This document shows, in pieces, positions 4,116 to 62,525 of a stretch of 64,000 nucleotides of DNA. The translations under genes and the position numbers were made by a program. Each line of letters opens with the position of its first letter. The first letter of the stretch is position 1. The notes below the pieces were generated by a model. It was not told where the DNA came from and ran no database searches. It saw only the letters and a list, made by a program, of their open reading frames with translations. The stretch comes from Eledone cirrhosa (lineage: Eukaryota), in contig OZ024742.1 of assembly GCA_964016885.1 (NCBI GenBank), forward strand, positions 282,038,001 through 282,102,000, given 5' to 3'.

Positions 4116-4270
4116 CCTCCTTACATACATGTTTAGCTGCGTGTGTGTGTATTTGTGTATGTGTGTGTGTCTGTGTGTGTCTGTGTGTATGTGCGTGTGT
4201 GAGGGTATTTCCATATTGCTGTTTTTGTGTTATTGCGAATGTAAATGATAATTTTAGAAACAAATTGAAA

Positions 4271-7624: not shown

Positions 7625-8519
7625 GAGGTGTGTCAGAAAAGTTCCAGGGCTGATGACATAAAAGTTTTATTTCAAACCCGAACTTAGCACTAAGAGTTTT
7701 CTACTTCAAAGTAATTCCCCTGGAGTCTAATGCACTTTTCCATCCTTTTCTGCCACGCTTGCATGCACTCCTGGAAGGATTCTTCCGGGATTCTCACAAG
7801 TTTCGTCGTCACGGCCTTTTTGATGTCGTCCACGTCTTCAAAACGGGTCCCCTGCGGGTCGTACTCGAAGATCATGACTCATCACCGGTAAAGACTTCCC
7901 TAGCAAGTCTGGTTCGGTTTCAAGACGCTCGAGGATGTCCTGACACACTTGCATGCGTCGACCCTTCTGGTCATCGTTCAGCAGTTTTGGTACCATCTTC
8001 GCGCAGACTTTCCGCATGTCCAAATCTTCAGTGAGAATCTTCCAGACGCTGTCCTGATTCATGCCAATCTCATTTTCTATCAGTCGAACAGTCAGCCGAC
8101 GATCGCTACGCACCATCTGCCTGACGCGCTCAACGTTGACCTCAGTCCTGGTTGTTGAAGTCCCTCCGCTCCTGGGGTCATCTTCCACTTCCTCGTGTCC
8201 TTCTTTAACCTCTTGCGCCACTCAAAAAGACGTGAGCGTGACATCGTCTCATCTCCATACACTTGCTGCAGCGGAGTTTTTCCCAACCGTACCAGAAACT
8301 TCAAGTTTGTTCGCTGCTCTGTGCTCATTGCTTTACGACCTGAAACAGAGGACATGTATATAAAATTATGAGGAAAAAAGTTTGATCGCTGCAAAGAGCT
8401 AAGATTACAGTTACATACTCCAGGGGGATTACTTTGAAGGAGGAAACTCTTATTATGAAGTGTGGGTTTGAAATAAATCTTTTGTGACGTCAATATTGGA
8501 ACTTTTCTGACACACCTCG
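7624..8519 (-). mobile_element. Mariner (Tc1/mariner) DNA transposon, internally deleted
   Basis: 23-bp perfect TIRs cgaggtgtgtcagaaaagttcca (7624-7646 / 8497-8519), TA on both flanks, transposase remnants inside. Confidence 0.93.
7690..8328 (-). pseudogene. Mariner transposase pseudogene (frameshifts; most of the catalytic domain deleted)
   Basis: MSTEQRTNLKFLVRLGK..FEWRKR / EDDPRSG..DRRLTVR..MRKVCAKMVPKLL (WVPxxL motif) / TGDES..FEYDP joined directly to GTRFEDVDDIK..WQKRMEKCIRLQGNYFE. Confidence 0.9.
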
Positions 8520-8937: not shown

Positions 8938-8968
<31 letters not shown>

Positions 8969-8969
8969 A

Positions 8970-9010
<41 letters not shown>

Positions 9011-9037
9011 CACGCATATATATATATATATGCATGA

Positions 9038-9908
9038 ATATTTTGTATGTCCAAAGAAATACAGTTTTAGGAAGCCGTAGCTATGCAAACACCGGGTGGC
9101 TAACGCCCTCTGGTGATGTCCAGCAGAAGCAATAGGGACAACCGTCTATGCATTTCATCCTTAACTGGCCTTCGTCAGGACGGTCCCTCCCATCATTTGC
9201 GACTGCTGGACTAGAAGACAGCTGAGAATATATACTTTTCTCGTCTGTGTAAATGAGGTGATTAATCTCATTTGCATATGAAGCTGCATAAGTTGGCTCA
9301 ACTTATAATAAAAAAGAAATAGGATTTCGCTTCAAGCATAGCTTTATACAATATGTATAAATATTTTGTATCTCCAAAGAAATACAGTTTTAGGAAGCCG
9401 TAGCGGTGGTAGGGACTGTCCTGACGAAGGCCAGTTAAGCCTGAAATGCATAGACGGTTGTCCCCCTTGCTTCTGCTGGATATCACCAGATGGCGTTAGC
9501 CCCCTGGTGTTTGCATAGTTACGGCTTCCTAAAACTGTATTTCTTTGGAGATACAAAATATTTATACATATTGTATAAAGCTATGCTTGAAGCGAAATCC
9601 TATTTCTTTTTTATTATAAGTTGAGCCAACTTATGCAGATTTATATGCAAATGAGATTAATCACCGCATTTACATAGACGAGAAAAGTATATATTCTTAG
9701 CTGTCTTCTAGTCCAGCAGTCGCAAATGATGGGAGGGACCAGTCTGACGAAGGCCAGTTAAGGATGAAATGCATAGACGGTTGTTCCTATTGCTTCTGCT
9801 GGACATCACCAGAGGGCGTTAGTCCCACCGGTGCTTGCGTAGCTACGGCTTCCTAAAACTGTATTTCTTTGGAGATACAAAAAGCTATGCTTGAAGCGAA
9901 ATCCTATT

Positions 9909-9913
<5 letters not shown>
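9038..9913. mobile_element. Family B retrozyme-like element: 323-bp monomer, tandem and head-to-head
   Basis: Period 323 (9038/9361; 9421/9744). Left arm 9038-9404 on minus, right arm 9405-9913 on plus; three HHR motifs; (TA)n flanks. Confidence 0.85.
9412..9464 (+). ncRNA. Type I hammerhead ribozyme (family B)
   Basis: gggac.tgtc-CTGACGA-aggc cagttaa gcct-GAAA-tgca-TA-gacgg..gtccc; helix III palindrome ATGCAT. Confidence 0.85.
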
Positions 9914-9983
<70 letters not shown>

Positions 9984-9989
<6 letters not shown>

Positions 9990-10479: not shown

Positions 10480-10640
10480 TTGAACCGTTAAGGTATATCA
10501 TCCTTGCTTATGTCAAATATTTATAAAACATTTTGTATTTTATCTGATGATAGCGTACCAAAATTTTTGGTACCCTTGAAATATATATAACAGAATAAAT
10601 ATGGTTTTATAAATATAGTTTCCATTTATTTAATATCAAT
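10480..10640 (+). mobile_element. Family D single arm with HHR
   Basis: Homologous to 16661-16820; CTGATGA at 10544, GAAA at 10578. Confidence 0.75.
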
Positions 10641-10642
10641 TG

Positions 10643-10733
<91 letters not shown>

Positions 10734-12445: not shown

Positions 12446-12587
12446 CAGAATTGGAGACGAATAGATAGATGTAGAGATAGATATCGAAAGACCGTGTGTG
12501 ACAGTCTGATAATTGTCCAACCCTGGTTCTTTTTTGATCGAGAAAAGATATTTGCGTATGTGTCTATGTGCGTAAATATATATTTAC

Positions 12588-12756
12588 ATAATTGTTTCTA
12601 CTTTTGGCACAAGGCCAGCAATTACTCAGTACATTACTGATACTTTATTTTATCGACGCCGTAAGGATGAAAGGCAGAGTTAACATCGGCGGGATTAACT
12701 TTGCCTTTCATCCTTACGGGGTCGATAAACTAAAGTACCAGTAATGTACTGGGTAA
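12588..12756. mobile_element. Major SINE in head-to-head fold-back arrangement
   Basis: 12622-12683 is the imperfect reverse complement of 12695-12756. Confidence 0.75.
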
Positions 12757-12771
12757 ATATATATTTATATA

Positions 12772-13186
12772 ATAATTATTTCTGCGTTTGGCACAAGACC
12801 GGCAATTATCCCAGTGCATTACTGATACTTTATTGTATCGACCCGACCCCGTAAGGATGAAAGGTAAAGTTAACCTCGGCGGGATTTGAACTCAGACCAT
12901 AAAGGGCCATAACTCTTTGCTGCAAAGCATGGCGTCCGACCCTCTACCGATACTGCCAATCCACCGCCCTTTAATGGCTTCTTATATAGGCATAAAGCCA
13001 GCAATTTTGGGGGCGGTGAAAGTCAATTAAATCGACTCCAGTACGTTACTGGTGCTTTATTTTAAGACCCTGTAAGGATGAAAGACAAAGTTAAACTCGG
13101 CAGGATTTGAACTCAGAACGTAAAGGGCCATAACTATGCTGCAAAGCATGGTGTCTGACGCTCTACTGATACTGCCAAACCACCAC
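12772..13186 (-). mobile_element. Two tandem copies of the major tRNA-derived SINE
   Basis: Minus strand has box A tggcagtatcgg, box B gagttcaaatcc and the gcctttcatccttacggggtcgataaaataaagtaccag core (Meta-domain-like). Confidence 0.85.
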
Positions 13187-15292: not shown

Positions 15293-15787
15293 AGAAATAG
15301 GATTTCGCTTCAAGCATAGCTTTATACAAATATGTATAGAAATTTGGTATTTCTAAAGAAACGCTATGTTTACAGGAAACATTTAGGAAGTCGTAACTAT
15401 GCAAACACCGGGGCTAACGCCCTCAAAAGTGGTGTCCAGCAGAGGCAAGGGGGACAGCCGTCTATGCATTTCAGGCTTGACTGGCCTTCATCAGGACCTA
15501 TTATAAGTTGGGCCAACTTATGCAGCTTCATATGCAAATGAGATTAATCACCTCATTTACACAGACGAGAAAACTATATATTCTCGACTGTTCTCAACTC
15601 CAGCAGTTGCAAGCGGTGGGGGGGGGCGTCCTGATTAAGGCCAGTCAAGCCTGAAATGCATATACGGTTACCCGCCTTGCTTCTGCTGGACACCACCAGA
15701 GGGCGTTAGCCCCGGTGTTTGCATAGCTACACGGCTTCCTAAATGTTTCCTGTAAACATACCGCGTTTCTTTAGAAATACGAAATTA
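15293..15787. mobile_element. Family B (divergent subfamily) fold-back
   Basis: Homologous to 9038-9913. Minus-strand HHR with CTGATGA at ~15453-15498; plus-strand copy mutated (CTGATTA at 15631). Confidence 0.8.
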
Positions 15788-15789
15788 CT

Positions 15790-16304
15790 ATGCCGGTTCA
15801 GCAAACATTAGGTATTAGGATTGGTGCTCTGAAATAGCGATGTATACCTGAATGTATGTATAATATATTTGGCAATATACCGTATGTTTAATTAAAAACA
15901 TTTACAAGACCATATGCTATCAGTTTTCAAATATACTATACATACATTCATGTATACATCGCTATTTCAGAGCACCAATCCTAATATCTAATTTTTGCTG
16001 GACCGGCAATCGCTCTGTATAATCAGCTCCTGATTATTACTGGAATTCTATAAGAATCCAGCTTCTATAATTTTCGGCGGAAGCAGGGGAGTACGTGGCT
16101 CTGATGAACGCCGGCCAGCGTGAAACAAACTGTCAGCTTCTCTCCCTTCTTTCGCCGAAACGAAATAAGTGACACGGTCACTACTATAAAACTGATAGCG
16201 TATGGTCGTCTAAATGTTTTTAATTAAACATACGGTATATTGCCAAATATACTATACATACATACATGTATACATCGCTATTTCAGAGCACCAATCCTAA
16301 TACC
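15790..16304 (+). mobile_element. Family C1 retrozyme-like element (316-bp period, inverted 5' arm)
   Basis: caaatatactatacatac repeats at 15928 and 16244; 15790-15927 is an inverted copy; central HHR. Confidence 0.8.
16097..16138 (+). ncRNA. Type I hammerhead ribozyme (family C1)
   Basis: ggct-CTGATGA-acgc cggcca gcgt-GAAA-ca aac tg-TC-agct (GUC site), enclosed by a longer stem tttcggcggaag..ggggag / ctccc..tttcgccgaaa. Confidence 0.85.
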
Positions 16305-16338
16305 ATATATATATATATACATACACACATACATACGT

Positions 16339-16501: not shown

Positions 16502-16910
16502 AATGATATTAAATAAATGGAAACTATATTTATAAAACCATATTTATTCTATTATATATATTTCAAGGGTACCAAAACTTTGGTACGCCATCATCAGATA
16601 AAATACAAAGTTTGTTTTATAAATGTTGACATAACCAAGAAAAGATACCTTAAGAAAAACTTGAACCGTTAAGGTATCTTTTCTTGGTTATGTCAACATT
16701 TATAATACACACTTTTTATTTTATCTGATGAGAGCGTACCAAGGTTTTGGTACACTTGAAATATATATAATAGAATAAATATGGTTTTATAAATATAGTT
16801 TCCATTTATTTAATATCATTGAATACTCCAGAAAATCTGTCGAGTGCTCTGAACCAGTTATACACATTTAGATTTGTTAAATTACCAACAACTTGAATAT
16901 CCCCTTTGCT
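16502..16910 (+). mobile_element. Family D fold-back element with tail
   Basis: Arms 16502-16653 and 16669-16820 are inverted; one-sided tail 16821-16910; TA flanks. Confidence 0.85.
16717..16777 (+). ncRNA. Type I hammerhead ribozyme (family D)
   Basis: tattttat-CTGATGA-gag.gtacc..ggtac.ctt-GAAA-tatata-TA-atagaata; helix III palindrome ATATATAT; mirror copy on the minus strand at ~16545-16605. Confidence 0.8.
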
Positions 16911-24029: not shown

Positions 24030-24062
<33 letters not shown>

Positions 24063-24123
24063 TTGATATATATTTACCCTTATCGAGCCCTCTTTGGATT
24101 TTAATCTTCAAATCTATTATTAT

Positions 24124-24185
<62 letters not shown>

Positions 24186-24881: not shown

Positions 24882-27488
<2,607 letters not shown>

Positions 27489-29393: not shown

Positions 29394-29395
<2 letters not shown>

Positions 29396-29586
29396 GGAAA
29401 AAGTATGACCCCGATGGCAGAGCTCAAGCCGTTTCGACGGCTATTTCTGGACTGCTATTTCCAGAAATACCCGTCGAAACGGCTCGAGCTCTGCCGTCGG
29501 GGTCATACTTTTTCCTATTACCCACTCTAAGTATTGAGTACTCTGGTGCGTTATGGTCCATCTGGTTCCTTACCACAATTCCTTCG

Positions 29587-29625: not shown

Positions 29626-30298
29626 GAGAGAGAGAGAGAGAGAGAGAAAGATCTGCCCCAGCTCCTGCTTTCCATCACTCGTGAAATTTTCTTACTTGAA
29701 ATTTTCCATATACTTCAGAGAACAAAATCGGCAAAAGAGGCCGCAAAATCGCTCGGTATGCAAATGAGGCTAATCAGCCGATGTATACATTTGAAAATAC
29801 TATGTATTCTCAGGTGTTCCAGCGGGTAGCATAACGAGCGCAATACACAATCTTGACATAGAGCAAGACAATCCGAAACGATTATCAATTCTCAATTGTT
29901 TCCTCCCAGCTACCTCAGGAACAAAAGTATGACGTTGCCATCTACCACGTGGTGTTTTATGAGGCGGTTTATTTGTAAACAAATGGAATATTAATATTGT
30001 TATGATATTATATTATTATTATTCACGCTTAGTGAGTTCAAATCCCGCCAAGCTTAAATTTTCTTTTTATCTTTATGGTGTCGATTTAATCGACTTTCCT
30101 CCTACCCCAAAGTTGCTGGCCTTGTGCCTAAATAAGAACCCATTTTTATTCACGCTTAGGGCGGTTGCTTGGCAGTATTAGTAGAACCTCAAACACCATG
30201 CTTTGGTAGTACCTATCTAAATAATGGTTTCTTATATAGGCACAAGGCCAGCAATCTTTGGGAAGGGGAAAGTCGGTTAAATGAAGACAGACATAAAT

Positions 30299-31717: not shown

Positions 31718-31721
<4 letters not shown>

Positions 31722-32061
31722 GGAGGTGAGTTTTATTGTAGTACAATAAAGCAATGCAAATATCGTATAAGAAGCACTCTACAGTTTGTAGGACTGGAGT
31801 ATACATAATATATAAGATCAAAAGATGGTTAAAAGAGTTCCATGTATTTTATTATGCGCATTTCAAAAACAAATATCATCATGCAATAACATTTGTGTTT
31901 TCATCAGATAAAATAGGAAGACATGATATTAAGTGTTTTTTAACCTTCATATCATGTCTTCCTATTTAATCTGATGAAAACACAAATGTTATTGCATGAT
32001 GATATTTGTTTTTGAAATGCGCATAATAAAATACATGGAACTCTTTTAACCATCTTTTGAT

Positions 32062-32066
<5 letters not shown>
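31718..32066. mobile_element. Family H fold-back with two mirror HHRs and left tail
   Basis: 31808-31929 vs 31949-32066 form a near-perfect IR; extra ~90 bp on the left only; TA flanks. Confidence 0.85.
31963..32033 (+). ncRNA. Type I hammerhead with extended helix II (family H)
   Basis: tatttaat-CTGATGA-aaacacaaatgttat..atgatatttgttttt-GAAA-tgcgca-TA-ataaaata. The mirror copy at 31845-31915 (-) has a perfect 8-bp helix I. Confidence 0.82.
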
Positions 32067-32119
<53 letters not shown>

Positions 32120-32248: not shown

Positions 32249-32744
32249 ACTAGAAATTGATTAACATATAAATAAACATGAATAATCACAGGAGATAATT
32301 TTTACAAGTGTGTAAGCACACATAGCTAGGTAGGTAACTAAATAAAGTTAACCAGAACTTCAAAAATAGATACCTTATAATATGATTAATCTTCCCTGTA
32401 TATATTCCATTAAAGAAATATATTTCACCAATTAATCGAATGGTAAACCATAGAGGCCGGTACTTGGATTTTCAACAAGATTTTCAACAAGATTAATCAT
32501 ATTATAAGGTATCTATTTTTGAAGTTCTGGTTAACTTTATTTAGTTACCTACCTAGCTATGTGTGCTTACACACTTGTAAAAATTATCTCCTGTGATTAT
32601 TCATGTTTATTTATATGCTAATCAATTTCTAGTTATTATAAAATGCTCGAACCTATTCGTTAGAATCTTAGAGCTTATTTTGCGGGTGATATGGCGCATG
32701 CCTTTCTGGCATGACACCCATAATTTTGATTATCTTAATTTTGG

Positions 32745-32793: not shown

Positions 32794-33219
32794 AATTATT
32801 AAAAAAATAATGAATAAACAAAGAAACAGTTCCTTATATTAAACAAAAAAAGTTCATTATTTTACGATCGTTTCTAGGACATATAAGTTTATTTCTGAAG
32901 ACAGCATATATATGTGAAGGTATGTATATTCTCTCTGATAGTTTGTATAATTTTGTACATAGATCTTTTGAATATGCATACCAATTCTAACACATATATG
33001 TCCTAGAAACGATCGTAAAATAATGAACTTTTTTTGTTTAATATAAGGAACTGTTTCTTTGTTTATTCATTATTTTTTTAATAATTTATCTTGACTCTGT
33101 TTTCCGTTTATCTTTCACCGAAAGTGATTTTGAATGCATCTCTTCTTTTCATGATATCCGGATTACATTGAGTTCTTCATACGGATTGGACACTACCGTA
33201 AACTTTTGGTAGATTTATC

Positions 33220-33774: not shown

Positions 33775-33780
33775 TATATA

Positions 33781-33869
33781 GGAAAATGTTTGACCCCGGC
33801 GGCAGAGCTCAAGCCATTTCAACGGCTATTTATGGACTCTACTACCCTAAGTACTCTGGTGCGTTATGG
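33781..33869. mobile_element. Family A decayed copy
   Basis: Inverted arm fused to a tail fragment. Confidence 0.65.
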
Positions 33870-33892
33870 TATATATATATATGTATAAATAC

Positions 33893-34030: not shown

Positions 34031-34049
34031 AAATATGGTATATATATAT

Positions 34050-34660
34050 ATGTATAAATATTTCGTATCTCCAAAGAAATACGGTTTTAGGAAGCCGTAG
34101 CTATGCAAACATCGAGGGTGCTAACGCCCTCTGGTGATGTCCAGCAAAAACAAGGGGCACAACCGTCTATGCATTTCAGGCTTAACTGGCCATCGTCAGG
34201 ACGTTCCCTCCCACTGCTTGAGACTGCTGGACTAGAAGACAGCTGAGAATATATACTTTTCTTGTCTGTGTAAATTAGGTGATTAATCTCATTTGCATAT
34301 GAAGCTGCATAAGTTGATTCAACTTATAATAGAAAGTTGAGCCAACTTATGCAGCTTCATATACAAATGAGATTAATCACCTCATTTACACAGACGAGAA
34401 ATCTATATATTCTCGCCTGTCTTCTAGTCCAGCAGTCTCAAGCAGTGGGAGGGACCGTCCTGACGATGGCCAGTTAAGCCTGAAATGCATAGACGGTTGT
34501 ACCGCTTGCTTCTGCTGTCCATCAACAGAGGGCGTTAGCCCCCCCCCCCCCCCCGGTATTTGCATAGCTACGGCTTCCTAAAACCGTATTTCTTTGGAGA
34601 TACGAAATATTTATACATATTGTATAAAGCTATGCTTGAAGCGAAATCTTATTTCTTTTC
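34050..34660. mobile_element. Family B fold-back with two mirror HHRs
   Basis: Left arm on minus to ~34330, right arm on plus. accgtc-CTGACGA..GAAA-tgca-TA-gacggt at 34454-34497; mirror at 34161-34206. Confidence 0.85.
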
Positions 34661-34679
34661 TATATATATATATATATAT

Positions 34680-36016
34680 GAATATAGACATAGAATATTC
34701 TCGAATATTCTGTATGTTTATAATAAACATTTTGAAGACCTAATCGCTATAGAATAGAATACGTCACGTATTACAATTAGATTCTCGATAAAAGCAAGGG
34801 AAGTAATCTACGCGTTTCATTCTTGTTAGAAATCATCAGGACTACATATCCAGTGCTTTTATCGAGAATGACACAGCTAGAGACTTATAGAATACTTAGC
34901 TGTGTACAGGAACTGGTTTGAAAGAGCGGTTGCCGGTCCGGCAGAAATTAGAAATTGGAATAAATGCTCTGAAATAGCGATATATATGTGAATATAGACA
35001 TAGAATATTCTCGAATATTCTGTATGTTTATAATAAACATTTTGAAGACCTAATCGCTATAGAATAGAATACGTCACGTATTACAATTAGATTCTCGATA
35101 AAAGCAAGGGAAGTAATCTACGCGTTTCATTCTTGTTAGAAATCATCAGGACTACATATCCAGTGCTTTTATCGAGAATGACACAGCTAGAGACTTATAG
35201 AATACTTAGCTGTGTACAGGAACTGGTTTGAAAGAGCGGTTGCCGGTCCGGCAGAAATTAGAAATTGGAATAAATGCTCTGAAATAGCGATATATATGTG
35301 AATATAGACATAGAATATTCTCGAATATTCTGTATGTTTATAATAAACATTTTGAAGACCTAATCGCTATAGAATAGAATACGTCACGTATTACAATTAG
35401 ATTCTCGATAAAAGCAAGGGAAGTAATCTACGCGTTTCATTCTTGTTAGAAATCATCAGGACTACATATCCAGTGCTTTTATCGAGAATGACGCAGCTAG
35501 AGACTTATAGAATACTTAGCTGTGTACAGGAACTGGTTTGAAAGAGCGGTTGCCGGTCCGGCAGAAATTAGAAATTGGAATAAATGCTCTGAAATAGCGA
35601 TATATATGTGAATATAGACATAGAATATTCTCGAATATTCTGTATGTTTATAATAAACATTTTGAAGACCTAATCGCTATAGAATAGAATACGTCACGTA
35701 TTACAATTAGATTCTCGATAAAAGCAAGGGAAGTAATCTACGCGTTTCATTCTTGTTAGAAATCATCAGGACTACATATCCAGTGCTTTTATCGTCATTC
35801 TCGATAAAAGCACTGGATATGTAGTCCTGATGATTTCTAACAAGAATGAAACGCGTAGATTACTTCCCTTGCTTTTATCGAGAATCTAATTGTAATACGT
35901 GACGTATTCTATTCTATAGCGATTAGGTCTTCAAAATGTTTATTATAAACATACAGAATATTCGAGAATATTCTATGTCTATATTCACATATATATCGCT
36001 ATTTCAGAGCATTTAT

Positions 36017-36022
<6 letters not shown>
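34680..36022. mobile_element. Family C2: 310-bp tandem array (3.6 near-identical units) plus inverted partial unit
   Basis: Units start at 34681, 34991, 35301 and 35611; inversion at ~35795; one HHR per unit; TA flanks. Confidence 0.9.
35821..35863 (+). ncRNA. Type I hammerhead (family C2); minus-strand copies at 34803-34845, 35113-35155, 35423-35465, 35733-35775
   Basis: gtagtc-CTGATGA-tttct aaca agaat-GAAA-cgcg-TA-gattac; palindromic ACGCGT; enclosed by attctcgataaaagca/tgcttttatcgagaat. Confidence 0.85.
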
Positions 36023-36062
<40 letters not shown>

Positions 36063-37232
36063 CTTAAGGTTTGTTGGTTCACCACTGGATAGAATTGGTC
36101 ATTCCGTATGGTCAATCTTGATGTAATATTGTGGAGAGTACTCAACGTAGTGCAGTTCACCCGTCTTCGTTTGTGTAGTTGGTGGTGCGAATACGGAGTT
36201 AATTATAAATAAATAGAATAACAGGGGGCTGGACTGGTGTAAATCCTTGAAAGGTTTATTATACTATGATCATTTCAATGACTGGGTTACATATGAATCC
36301 GGTGATATCATCAGGTATTGGAATATAACAAAGGAATATGTAAAAAACCATGGGTCCGAAAAATCAGAGACAGAGACAGAGAGGACGACTGACCAACTAG
36401 CTGCTTTCACCTCGGCCAGTCGCCCTCAAGGTGATGGCAACTGAATCTACTAATGACCATCTGGTGAGGGGGCGAAGGCTTATAATGCACTATCACCTCT
36501 CCGTCAAAGAAAAAGGTGAAGAAAGAAAGAAAGGAAGAAAGAAGAAGAAAAAGGAAGAAAGGAAGAAAGAAGTCAGCGTAAGGATCACACTACATCCATG
36601 CTAGAAAATACCGCGAAAAATGCTACTCCAAAGAATCTATATTTACCAAAGGCATATATAATGGGTCTCTGTATGGTCTAATGTGTGAACCGAAAATTGG
36701 AACATTAAACCTATGTTACGAGTAATAGGATGAAATTAAATTAAATTAAAAAATATTAAATTGCAAAATGATAAATTAAAAAATAAATTATTAGAAAATG
36801 AAAGGTTAAGGTCGCGAGATTTATTTTATGAACTTACATACAGAGTCTCATATGAAAAAATTAATCTCGATAAGATATAGAGTAAATATTTCGATTGTGA
36901 GACCCAGCCAGCCCCCCCCCCCCCCCCCCCACCATGAGTCAGCCAGTTTCGAGTGGTATCGTCCAGCGAAAGAAATGGAAATTAATTTTTCCGAGTACTC
37001 TAGGAACGTAGCTACCTTAGGCCCCGGGAGTGCTAGCGGGAAGTCTACAATTTCGACAGGCCATCGTCTATACCAAACGAATATTATTAATTCACACATG
37101 AGGGGGTTTATTTACTCTACTACCCTAAGTATTCAGTACTCTGGTGCGTTATGGTCCATCTCGTTCCTTACCACAATTCCTTTGTTATAAATATTTATAT
37201 ATATACACACACACACACACACACATATATAT

Positions 37233-39143: not shown

Positions 39144-39326
39144 CGAAGGAAATGTGGTAAGGAACCAGGTGGACCATAACGCACCAAAGTACTCAATACT
39201 TAGGGTAGTAGAGTGGGTAGTAGGAACGAGTAGGACCCCGACGGCTGAGCTCAAGCCGTTTCGACGGCTAATTCTGGACTGAAAATACTCAGCCGTCGGG
39301 GTCCTACCGTCGGGGTCCTACTCGTT

Positions 39327-39366
<40 letters not shown>

Positions 39367-39556
39367 AAAAGGTATGACCCCAACGGCAGAGCTCAAGCCG
39401 TTTCGACGGCTATTTCAGTCCAGAAATAGCCGTCGAAACGGCTTGATCTCTGCCGTCGGGGTCATACTTTTTTCCTATTTCCCACTCTACTACCCTAAGT
39501 ATTGAGTACTCTGCTGCGTTATGGGCCATCTGGTTCCTTATCACAATTCCTTTGTT
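39141..39556. mobile_element. Two adjacent family A copies (39141-39330 tail left; 39363-39556 tail right)
   Basis: Homology to 1014-1217 and 29394-29588. Confidence 0.82.
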
Positions 39557-51268: not shown

Positions 51269-51681
51269 TGAGGGAGGTGGATTGGCAGTATCGATAGAGC
51301 GCCGGACAACATGCCGTGTAGCATACAGTTACGATCCTTTACGTTCTGAGTTCAAATCTCGCCGAGATAAGTTTCGCATTCCATCCTTATGGGGTTGATA
51401 AATAAAGCACCAGTAATGCACTGGGGTCGATTTAATCGACTTTCCCGTCTGCAAAGTTGATGGCTGGCCCTGTGCCTATATAAGAAATCGGTGGAATGGC
51501 AATATCGGTAGAGGGTCAGAAGCCATGCTTTGACGCATTGAGTTACGGCCTTTGCTATTCTGAGTTCAAATCCCGCCGAGGTTAACTTTGCCTTTCCTCC
51601 TTACGGGGTCGATAAAATAAAGTACCAGTAACATACTGTGTAATTGGTGGCCTTGTGCCAAAAGTAGAAACAATTATTATT
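51269..51681 (+). mobile_element. Two tandem major SINE copies
   Basis: Box A/B and core occur twice; an older copy lies at ~51030-51175. Confidence 0.85.
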
Positions 51682-53156: not shown

Positions 53157-54352
53157 GTTTGTTTCTGTCTGTCACACATACAACTTATGGACACCCTGCT
53201 CAGTTTGTTTCTGTCTGTCACACATACAACTTATGGACACCCTGCTCAGTTTGTTTCTGTCTGTCACACATACAACTTATGGACACCCTGCTCAGTTTGT
53301 TTCTGTCTGTCACACATACAACTTATGGACACCCTGCTCAGTTTGTTTCTGTCTGTCACACATACAACTTATGGACACCCTGCTCAGTTTGTTTCTGTCT
53401 GTCACACATACAATTTATGGACACCCTGCTCAGTTTGTTTCTGTCTGTCACACATACAACTTATGGACACCCTGCTCAGTTTGTTTCTGTCTGTCTCACA
53501 TACAACTTATGAACACCCTGCTCAGTTTGTTTCTGTCTGTCTCACATACAACTTATGGACACCCTGCTCAGTTTGTTTCTGTCTGTCACACATACAACTT
53601 ATGGACACCCTGCTCAGTTTGTTTCTGTCTGTCACACATACAACTTATGAACACCCTGCTCAGTTTGTTTCTGTCTGTCACACATACAACTTATGGACAC
53701 CCTGCTCAGTTTGTTTCTGTCTGTCTCACATACAACTTATGAACACCCTGCTCAGTTTGTTTCTGTCTGTCTCACATACAACTTATGGACACCCTGCTCA
53801 GTTTGTTTCTGTCTGTCACACATACAATTTATGGACACCCTGCTCAGTTTGTTTCTGTCTGTCACACATACAACTTATGAACACCCTGCTCAGTTTGTTT
53901 CTGTCTGTCACACATACAACTTATGGACACCCTGCTCAGTTTGTTTCTGTCTGTCTCACATACAACTTATGAACACCCTGCTCAGTTTGTTTCTGTCTGT
54001 CTCACATACAACTTATGGACACCCTGCTCAGTTTGTTTCTGTCTGTCTCACATACAACTTATGGACACCCTGCTCAGTTTGTTTCTGTCTGTCACACATA
54101 CAACTTATGGACACCCTGCTCAGTTTGTTTCTGTCTGTCACACATACAACTTATGGACACCCTGCTCAGTTTGTTTCTGTCTGTCACACATACAACTTAT
54201 GGACACCCTGCTCAGTTTGTTTCTGTCTGTCACACATACAATTTATGGACACCCTGCTCAGTTTGTTTCTGTCTGTCACACATACAACTTATGGACACCC
54301 TGCTCAGTTTGTTTCTGTCTGTCTCACATACAACTTATGGACACCCTGCTCA
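53157..54352. repeat. Minisatellite, 26 x 46 bp
   Basis: Unit gtttgtttctgtctgtcacacatacaacttatggacaccctgctca; three recurring single-base variants. Confidence 0.97.
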
Positions 54353-54590
54353 GTTTGTTGTGCAGCCTGTTCGGATAGTTGTAACCTCACCTTTATGCAC
54401 GAAATTGCATTGGCTAAGGACTGACACATGAAGAGGGTAGATGCTTTTGTTCGTTCATCCTACTTTATGCTTTTTCGTTGGCAACACCCACACACACACG
54501 CACACAAATATACATGGGTGAATTGAAACAAACTTGTGCTGCTATATGGAATAGTTCTATTAATAAAATATATTTTGACTCTACATATAT

Positions 54591-61940: not shown

Positions 61941-62062
61941 ACGAAGGAAATGTGGTAAGGAACCAGGTGGACCATAACGCACCAAAGTACTCAATACTTG
62001 AGGTAGTCAGAATTAGCCGTCGAAACGGCTTGAGCTCAGCTGTCGGGGTCTTACTGGTTCCT
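61939..62062. mobile_element. Family A copy: inverted tail joined to a tail-less arm
   Basis: 61939-62007 is the reverse-complement tail; 62008-62062 is the cagaattagccgtcgaaac..ggttcc arm. Confidence 0.8.
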
Positions 62063-62155
62063 ATATATATATATATATATATATATAACATATATATATA
62101 TATATATAACATATATATATATATATATATATATATAACATATATATATATATAT

Positions 62156-62525
62156 AACAAAATAAAGATCCGAAGGCATGGTATAACATTCCAATCATTT
62201 TAATCACGACACATGTTTCAATAAGAGATAGATCGATCGTGTGGCCATGATCGATTATTACTGATCTCGTCAGGTGATAAATCAGTGATAATCGATCATG
62301 GCCACACGATCGATCTATCTCTTATTGAAACATGTGTCGTGATTAAAATGATTGAAAATTTATACCATGCCTTCGGATCTTTATTTTGATACAAATACTC
62401 TTCACATCATCTAGCTGTTCCCATAAATGGAATTGGAGATATACAAAAGCGTGGAGAACTTAATATTGCCAGCAAAAGTTTATTGGACCGTATGACACAA
62501 CCAATAATATACCTTACTATATAAC

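Follow-up and report, generated by a model that had tools for sequence, protein, structure and literature searches.

The window, by which we mean the whole analysed stretch of 64,000 nucleotides, consists of AT-rich DNA of animal type. It has 143 tandem-repeat rows, of which many are (TA)n, as well as many short inverted repeats, and it contains three loci of a hammerhead-bearing repeat, family B, at 9028/9038-9913, 15293-15791 and 34048-34662. The repeat unit measures 323 bp, as given by the hammerhead cut sites at 9452 and 9775, and this period, which an earlier note on the sequence had reported for both arms, was recovered as direct repeats at a spacing of 323/324 in the right arm of the 9.0-kb locus and as a 54-nt repeat at a spacing of 323 in the left arm. 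At every locus (3/3), an arm on the minus strand precedes one on the plus strand and their 5' ends (in ribozyme sense) meet centrally, confirming the three head-to-head copies described at 9.0, 15.3 and 34.0 kb. The description of these copies as multimers applied only in part: more than one unit per arm occurs only at the 9.0-kb locus (~1.15 and ~1.65 units), while the remaining four arms span 0.6-1.0 unit (15.3 kb: ~0.6 and ~0.86; 34.0 kb: ~0.89 and ~1.0).

The 9.0-kb insert is flanked by a (TA)n-rich target sequence on the left (8938..9031) and by (TA)36 on the right (9914..9985), neither assigned to a strand. Its left arm, 9L (9028..9404, minus strand, ~1.15 units), extends from phase 65 to phase 110-119 of the next unit, where phase 1 is the base after the AUA of the cut site, and forms the tail-less end at site 1; the clean match stops at 9037-9038, and the extension to 9028 contains mismatches. 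The right arm, 9R (9402..9913, plus strand, ~1.65 units), carries a 20-nt deletion in its last unit and forms the tailed end at site 2, with a tail (9884..9913, plus strand) that comprises a GCTAT...GAAGC motif and a terminal hairpin and has an internal copy from 9580. The two arms have 3 nt, AGC, in common at the inversion junction (9402..9404, unstranded). At 15.3 kb, arm 15L (15293..15497, minus strand, 0.6 unit) bears the tailed end, and 15R (15498..15791, plus strand, 0.86 unit) has a tail-less end adjoining another repeat, family C. At 34.0 kb, both outer ends lie within (TA)n, that of 34L (34048..34335, minus strand, 0.89 unit) being tail-less and that of 34R (34334..34662, plus strand, 1.0 unit), which overlaps 34L by 2 nt, being tailed. 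An old, diverged family B fragment with ~72% identity and no hammerhead lies at 29751..29819 on the plus strand.

Because the two arms of one locus differ at 5-11 of ~113 sites, they are real and old copies, and an assembly fold-back artefact as the source of the inverted arms is ruled out. The copies in the window are old and mostly decayed. The matched stretches have a GC content of 42-50%, the longest stop-free frame in the unit spans 73 codons, and the unit contains no RT or GIY-YIG ORF. Upstream of the unit boundary, 9L and 9R enter another unit and no ORF, and three further arms start at the boundary. The missing ORF, together with boundary-passing arms that run into another unit, identifies family B as a non-autonomous unit of retrozyme size. 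When 9520-9775 was compared with 9147-9402, all 8 inter-arm differences over 256 nt were private to the right arm.

Several other hammerhead families occur in the window, and the right arms at 15.3 and 34.0 kb are both directly followed by family C or D. Family D (34670-36022) is built from a 310-bp hammerhead unit with an ACGCGT helix III and comprises 3.6 tandem units and an inverted, tailed arm. It is young and distantly related to family B, with which it is weakly collinear (score 48 versus a shuffle maximum of 43; E 4e-4), and it is the better candidate for circle-templated copying. Family C (15791-16305; period 316 bp; hammerhead at 16101-16134 with a non-palindromic stem III) is 69-79% similar to family D, and its left end adjoins 15R without intervening (TA)n. 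Comparisons of family B with families C, E and F and with a hammerhead at 36.3 kb gave no score clearly above shuffles. Further hammerhead families lie at 16502-16830, 10480-10646, 31720-32079, 36265-36314 and 62208-62273, several as inverted pairs and with the palindromic helix III sequences ATATATAT, ATGCGCAT and ATGATCAT. Elsewhere, a transposase fragment (7838-8221, minus strand) with a weak HTH_32 match sits between inverted repeats at 7651-7726 and 8417-8492, and we take this element at 7650-8500 to be mariner-like. An abundant SINE-like repeat of ~200 bp, presumably akin to an octopus SINE, recurs at 4270, 12570-13180, 22320, 27650, 51270-51680, 54590, 58200, 60670 and 63800, its copy at 12622-12756 being itself folded as an inverted repeat. 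At 53157-54359, 32266-32616, 32821-33059 and 62174-62372 lie a minisatellite with 26 copies of a 46-bp unit and several long palindromes that are near-perfect.

Hammerhead motifs and RNA folding

Family B carries, in seven copies, a compact hammerhead of type I whose helix III is the palindrome ATGCAT and whose cut site is AUA, such that the compact, palindromic ribozyme noticed earlier was upheld by both descriptor and anatomy. The motif consists of a 7-bp stem I, CUGAnGA, a 4-bp stem II with a 7-nt loop, GAA, AUGCAU and A. A strict hammerhead descriptor matched 15 times in the window, five of these in family B, compared to a mean of 0.2 in 30 shuffles. Only one of the seven copies is fully intact, while stem II retains 2/4 pairs in two copies and has a U-U at its base in two others, one copy is clipped by a junction and one has a broken core. 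The intact copy lies in 9R (9414..9459, plus strand) and shows a 7-bp stem I, CUGACGA, a 4-bp stem II with a 7-nt loop, GAA and AUGCAU, with its cut after A9452. The second 9R hammerhead (9737..9782, plus strand; cut after 9775) is damaged in stems I and II, and that of 9L (9140..9185, minus strand; cut after 9147) in stem II, where 2/4 pairs remain. At 15.3 kb, stem I of the 15L hammerhead (minus strand; cut after 15463) is clipped by the junction and the core of the 15R hammerhead (plus strand; cut site 15662) is broken, reading CUGAUUA. The copies at 34.0 kb have their cuts after 34168 in 34L (minus strand; U-U at the base of stem II) and after 34491 in 34R (plus strand).

The active fold has an energy of -26.5 kcal/mol as a dimer, i.e., a double hammerhead, and of -4.9 for one monomer, and the cofold minimum (-29.3) is a structure other than the active dimer. 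Helix III of family B consists of one pair and a palindromic tetraloop, as in the axolotl HHR_Amex1, whose one-pair helix III likewise bears a palindromic tetraloop as its cap and which works better as a dimer (PMC7229834). From the anatomy and the folding energies, a dimer-dependent cleavage after AUA is predicted and appears plausible; most likely, the hammerhead would be active on tandem transcripts and in dimeric form only, its cut after AUA freeing unit-length RNA. Dimer cleavage in cis at the loci of the window is unlikely, as only 9R has two motifs on one strand and the second of these is damaged.

The whole unit folded better than shuffled sequences, both as a linear (z -4.4) and as a circular RNA (z -3.6 to -5.6), whereas the hammerhead region alone did not (z +0.9). 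The antisense unit folded equally well as the sense unit, compensatory changes were found at 0/69 predicted pairs among five arms, and Rfam yielded no match in the window at gathering scores, with nine weak matches in 9000-9950, none of them a hammerhead. Given these results, the case for dimer cleavage is drawn from the anatomy and from the axolotl and PLE hammerheads. An exact 24-nt piece of the hammerhead had no match in bacterial and archaeal genomes.

Insert ends, junctions and tails

The earlier note had read differing end phases among the copies as a sign of a circular or multimeric RNA template. Upon mapping the endpoints of the six arms in the window onto the circular unit, we found that the inner ends do vary and that the outer (3') ends are nearly fixed at two sites: phases 110-119 (9L), 107-113 (15R) and 119 (34L) at site 1, and phases 157-158 (9R), 155 (15L) and 162 (34R) at site 2. 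The two sites are ~40-50 nt apart, and each locus uses one of each (3/3), for which the chance, taken alone and with three loci only, is 1/8; six random points would fall in so short an arc with P ~0.0005-0.0013. The 15R outer end, which adjoins family C, may be secondary. Free circular permutation of the ends is thereby ruled out, all six outer ends lying at two sites, and permutation cannot serve as evidence for a circle. A unit-length cleaved linear RNA as the template is likewise ruled out, since no end lies at AUA (outer ends at the ribozyme cut site: 0/6). Family B outer ends are thus neither freely permuted nor identical terminal inverted repeats.

The inner ends are spread more widely, over phases 65-68, 273-278, 289, 159, 156 and 166, with 3/6 falling within 156-166, i.e., at site 2 (P ~0.0007 for a preset window, though this window was picked post hoc). 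At the junctions the arms overlap by 3 nt (9.0 kb), 0-1 nt (15.3 kb) and 2 nt (34.0 kb). (TA) runs adjoin 5/6 outer ends, and with (TA)n as flanks no target site duplication is readable.

A tail is present at only one end of each family B insert (3/3 loci, the 15R end being less certain), and a GCTAT...GA(A)GC motif lies between the two end sites in families B, C and D. A looser version of this pattern, composed after inspection of the same sequences, occurred in 7/8 stretches downstream of hammerheads in the window, three of them family B, with 0.3 expected. In Hydra-type PLE loci it occurred in 7/22 such stretches, with 0.9 expected, and many of the 15 misses meet a TA tract first.

A comparable end geometry was found in family G (1011-1212, 29394-29584, 33778-33870, 37114-37182, 39146-39331, 39362-39552 and 61944-62064), whose short inserts in (TA)n are head-to-head, have two outer ends fixed ~75 nt apart and yielded no hammerhead. 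Among its two-armed loci, the short end lies at one position in 6/6 and the long end at one position in 5/6.

Proposed priming, template and source of the inserts

Family B is probably a 323-bp non-autonomous, retrozyme-like PLE passenger; a PLE reverse transcriptase would have copied it at a cut (TA)n target, with both ends of the break serving as primers. In short, it is a retrozyme in how it works and a PLE in how it inserts. A source copy would first be transcribed, and a PLE RT/GIY-YIG protein supplied in trans would cut (TA)n, as suggested by the targets and by published PLE behaviour. cDNA synthesis would then be primed within the RNA by both DNA ends, at site 1 (~110-119) by one of them and at site 2 (~155-162) by the other, these putative start sites being the observed end positions, which flank the conserved tail motif. 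Both cDNAs pass the hammerhead site, and would then stop at variable points; as the cut site is crossed by all six arms, the template RNA was uncleaved or re-ligated. Joining of the two cDNAs, presumably through the 0-3 nt of microhomology observed at the junctions, would produce a head-to-head insert with a tail at one end only.

Variants shared between the arms of a locus bear on the template. Derived states are common to 9L and the second unit of 9R at 5 columns, at all of which the first unit of 9R has the consensus; to 15L and 15R as 8 substitutions and a 14-nt insertion (22 alignment columns); and to 34L and 34R at 3 columns. Across all loci, 3 columns conflict, and the tree supports are 0.95, 0.98 and 0.86. 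These states indicate that each locus drew its two arms from a single template or a single source locus, or that the arms were converted later, and later gene conversion could indeed account for the shared states. Two primings, one per DNA end, account for the shared states, for arms that do not contain one another and for the two-end rule and the non-overlapping arms of family G.

Whether the template was a circle, i.e., a hammerhead-cleaved and re-ligated monomer around which the RT would run until it reaches a start site or displaces past that site, is a separate matter, and we regard this as a tentative possibility. It would fit six arms that all cross the cut site, two of which are longer than one unit, as well as the three of six inner ends at site 2 (phase 156-166), the good folding of the unit as a circle (z -3.6 to -5.6), the circular RNAs shown for other animal retrozymes (PMC7229834) and the 3.6 units of the neighbouring family D that differ by 0-1 of 290 bases. 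A linear RNA beginning at the unit boundary would, however, likewise give inner ends at 156-166, and a purified PLE protein used unprocessed RNA (PMC11167929). Furthermore, the two units of 9R differ at 12/113 sites, and the derived states of 9L match unit 2 only, which disfavors repeated copying of a single monomeric circle, save with conversion afterwards; conversion between hairpin arms, with unit 1 being in the loop, could mimic the likeness of 9L and unit 2. What stands of the proposed circular or multimeric template is that, at 9.0 kb, it was longer than one unit or circular, while end permutation no longer supplies its basis.

Within the two-priming reading, we also consider a more specific version, for now speculative, in which a PLE protein dimer primes two cDNAs, each from a different DNA end, at two fixed sites flanking the conserved GCT...GAGC hairpin on the same RNA, possibly a hammerhead-made circle, which would yield head-to-head inserts with a one-sided tail.

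A second arm might also arise by self-priming of a single cDNA or antisense template, with endonuclease resolution leaving the one-sided tail, as proposed for PLE palindromes (PMC3846280, PMC8557442). Such a fold-back would directly explain the variants common to both arms, and it predicts that one arm lies inside the other. This is true at 9.0 kb, where 9L is wholly contained in 9R and the 3-nt junction overlap fits, but false at 15.3 and 34.0 kb, where neither arm contains the other; moreover, family G arms lack any overlap at 33.8 and 62.0 kb. Arm containment could have been hidden by a deletion that arose later in the center of the palindrome; we consider fold-back rather unlikely.

Alternatively, an autonomous PLE with its ORF at another place in the genome could have supplied family B as its repeatedly 5'-truncated 3' end, comprising pLTR and tail. 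Hydra-type PLEs do carry a hammerhead 126-352 nt past the ORF (6 loci measured), they leave short ORF-less doublets (at locus L011), and retrozymes are reported to be related to pLTRs (10.64898/2026.07.22.740005). But the two arms that run past the unit boundary continue into a further unit and no ORF, and three more start at the boundary, which renders this origin improbable.

A foldback or MITE-type DNA transposon with the arms as terminal inverted repeats, or a SINE, is highly improbable: while each locus is a long imperfect inverted repeat with TA-rich flanks, the center differs at every locus, a hammerhead is present in every arm, and the search for SINE promoter elements gave no B-box, no sense A-box at up to one mismatch and no tRNA. 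Identical terminal inverted repeats with target site duplications, which the earlier note had named as the finding that would speak for such a transposon, were not seen, the two outer ends of each insert being offset by ~40 nt. Its view of an RNA-mobilised element that is no SINE or MITE is supported, and its premise of permuted ends is not.

Relation to PLEs and retrozymes

The surroundings of family B in the window include a 5'-truncated Hydra-type PLE (24915..26215, plus strand) with an RT bearing YRDD, a CxCx5C linker and a GIY-YIG-like endonuclease, the latter separated from the RT by a stop. An inverted copy of its first bases is present at ~24060-24150 and again near 40.4 kb, and no hammerhead was seen downstream of it. 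The remnant had 418 homologues, and among the best 120 the endonuclease follows the RT in 118 and the CxCx5C linker is present in 109. Pfam gave no RT or endonuclease match for the remnant, nor for 4 of the 120 listed homologues; a pairwise test of its endonuclease frame against P0002 was negative, while 118 of the 120 listed homologues matched it. We found no sequence common to family B and this remnant, and no sequence match between family B and 14 Hydra-type loci; an autonomous partner that shares sequence with family B thus did not emerge from these comparisons. Hammerheads occur in 9/14 of these loci. One of them, L011, contains ORF-less head-to-head hammerhead doublets with a one-sided tail beside a Hydra-type ORF, and in both doublets the short arm ends just before the tail motif and the long arm contains it. 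These Hydra-type PLEs with hammerheads (L001-L014), some with (TA)n, lie inside bacterial genome records and look like animal DNA carried in bins.

The inserts resemble known EN+ PLE insertions (PMC3846280; PMC8557442; PMC11167929) in their 5' truncation, the head-to-head inverted arm, the tail at one end, a hammerhead upstream of two RT start sites and the AT-rich or (TA)n target, and differ in that the family B unit has no RT or GIY-YIG ORF and that the comparisons gave no link in sequence to an autonomous family. Among PLE inversions, the head-to-head form is the most frequent, and one of the inverted pLTRs bears a tail (PMC3846280); PLE tails measure 30-40 bp and occur at a single end, and (TA)n is the target of the Hydra and Naiad elements (PMC8557442). 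With purified PLE protein, both strands are cut and extended, synthesis begins at two internal sites by which the tail is bounded, AT-rich DNA is preferred, and cleavage by the ribozyme is dispensable (PMC11167929). With Hydra clade PLEs, family B has the (TA)n target and the 3' hammerhead in common, but Hydra hammerheads have a self-contained 3-4-bp stem III, unlike that of family B (PMC8557442). By eye, a GCT...GAGC-type tail motif is also seen at the end of the Hydra-2_Amil consensus (PMC8557442); the Naiad section of that paper's supplement shows a similar motif in one consensus, so that it is not Hydra-specific.

With animal non-LTR retrozymes, family B has in common a non-coding unit of 150-450 bp, a type I hammerhead, a GC content below 50%, strong self-pairing and the presence of PLEs in the same genome (Cervera and de la Pena 2020, PMC7229834; Li et al. 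2026, 10.64898/2026.07.22.740005). These papers describe tandem arrays and monomers, whereas family B forms dispersed head-to-head pairs; a term search of their main texts gave no use of "inverted", "head-to-head" or "tail" for the elements. Li et al. (2026, 10.64898/2026.07.22.740005) call a retrozyme active when it is tandem with at least two consecutive complete hammerheads; in the window only 9R has two family B hammerheads, and the second is damaged.

Another close system is L1 twin priming. There, an inverted arm results from two primings and is attached 5'-to-5' through microhomology; the arms are free of overlap and one of them begins at poly(A), whereas in family B the arms overlap and their starts lie at two fixed internal sites. 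In the openly accessible literature searched, we found no account of Penelope twin priming or of a head-to-head retrozyme; family B itself was also not found there, and supplements and repeat libraries may hold it or similar head-to-head retrozymes.

As a family, family B is ordinary: many animals carry hammerhead repeats of comparable size. What it contributes is mechanistic, namely a PLE insertion signature on a retrozyme-sized unit, the link between retrozymes and PLEs having so far been argued from co-occurrence and pLTR similarity. The paired ends separate three models (two primings, fold-back and circle) and can be counted genome-wide. Two-site priming addresses a step that PMC8557442 counts as unresolved, and, if it is true, the passengers B, D and G, each insert of which records both start and stop sites, would constitute a genome-wide natural test, and the anatomy of the insertions would tie animal retrozymes to the PLE machinery.
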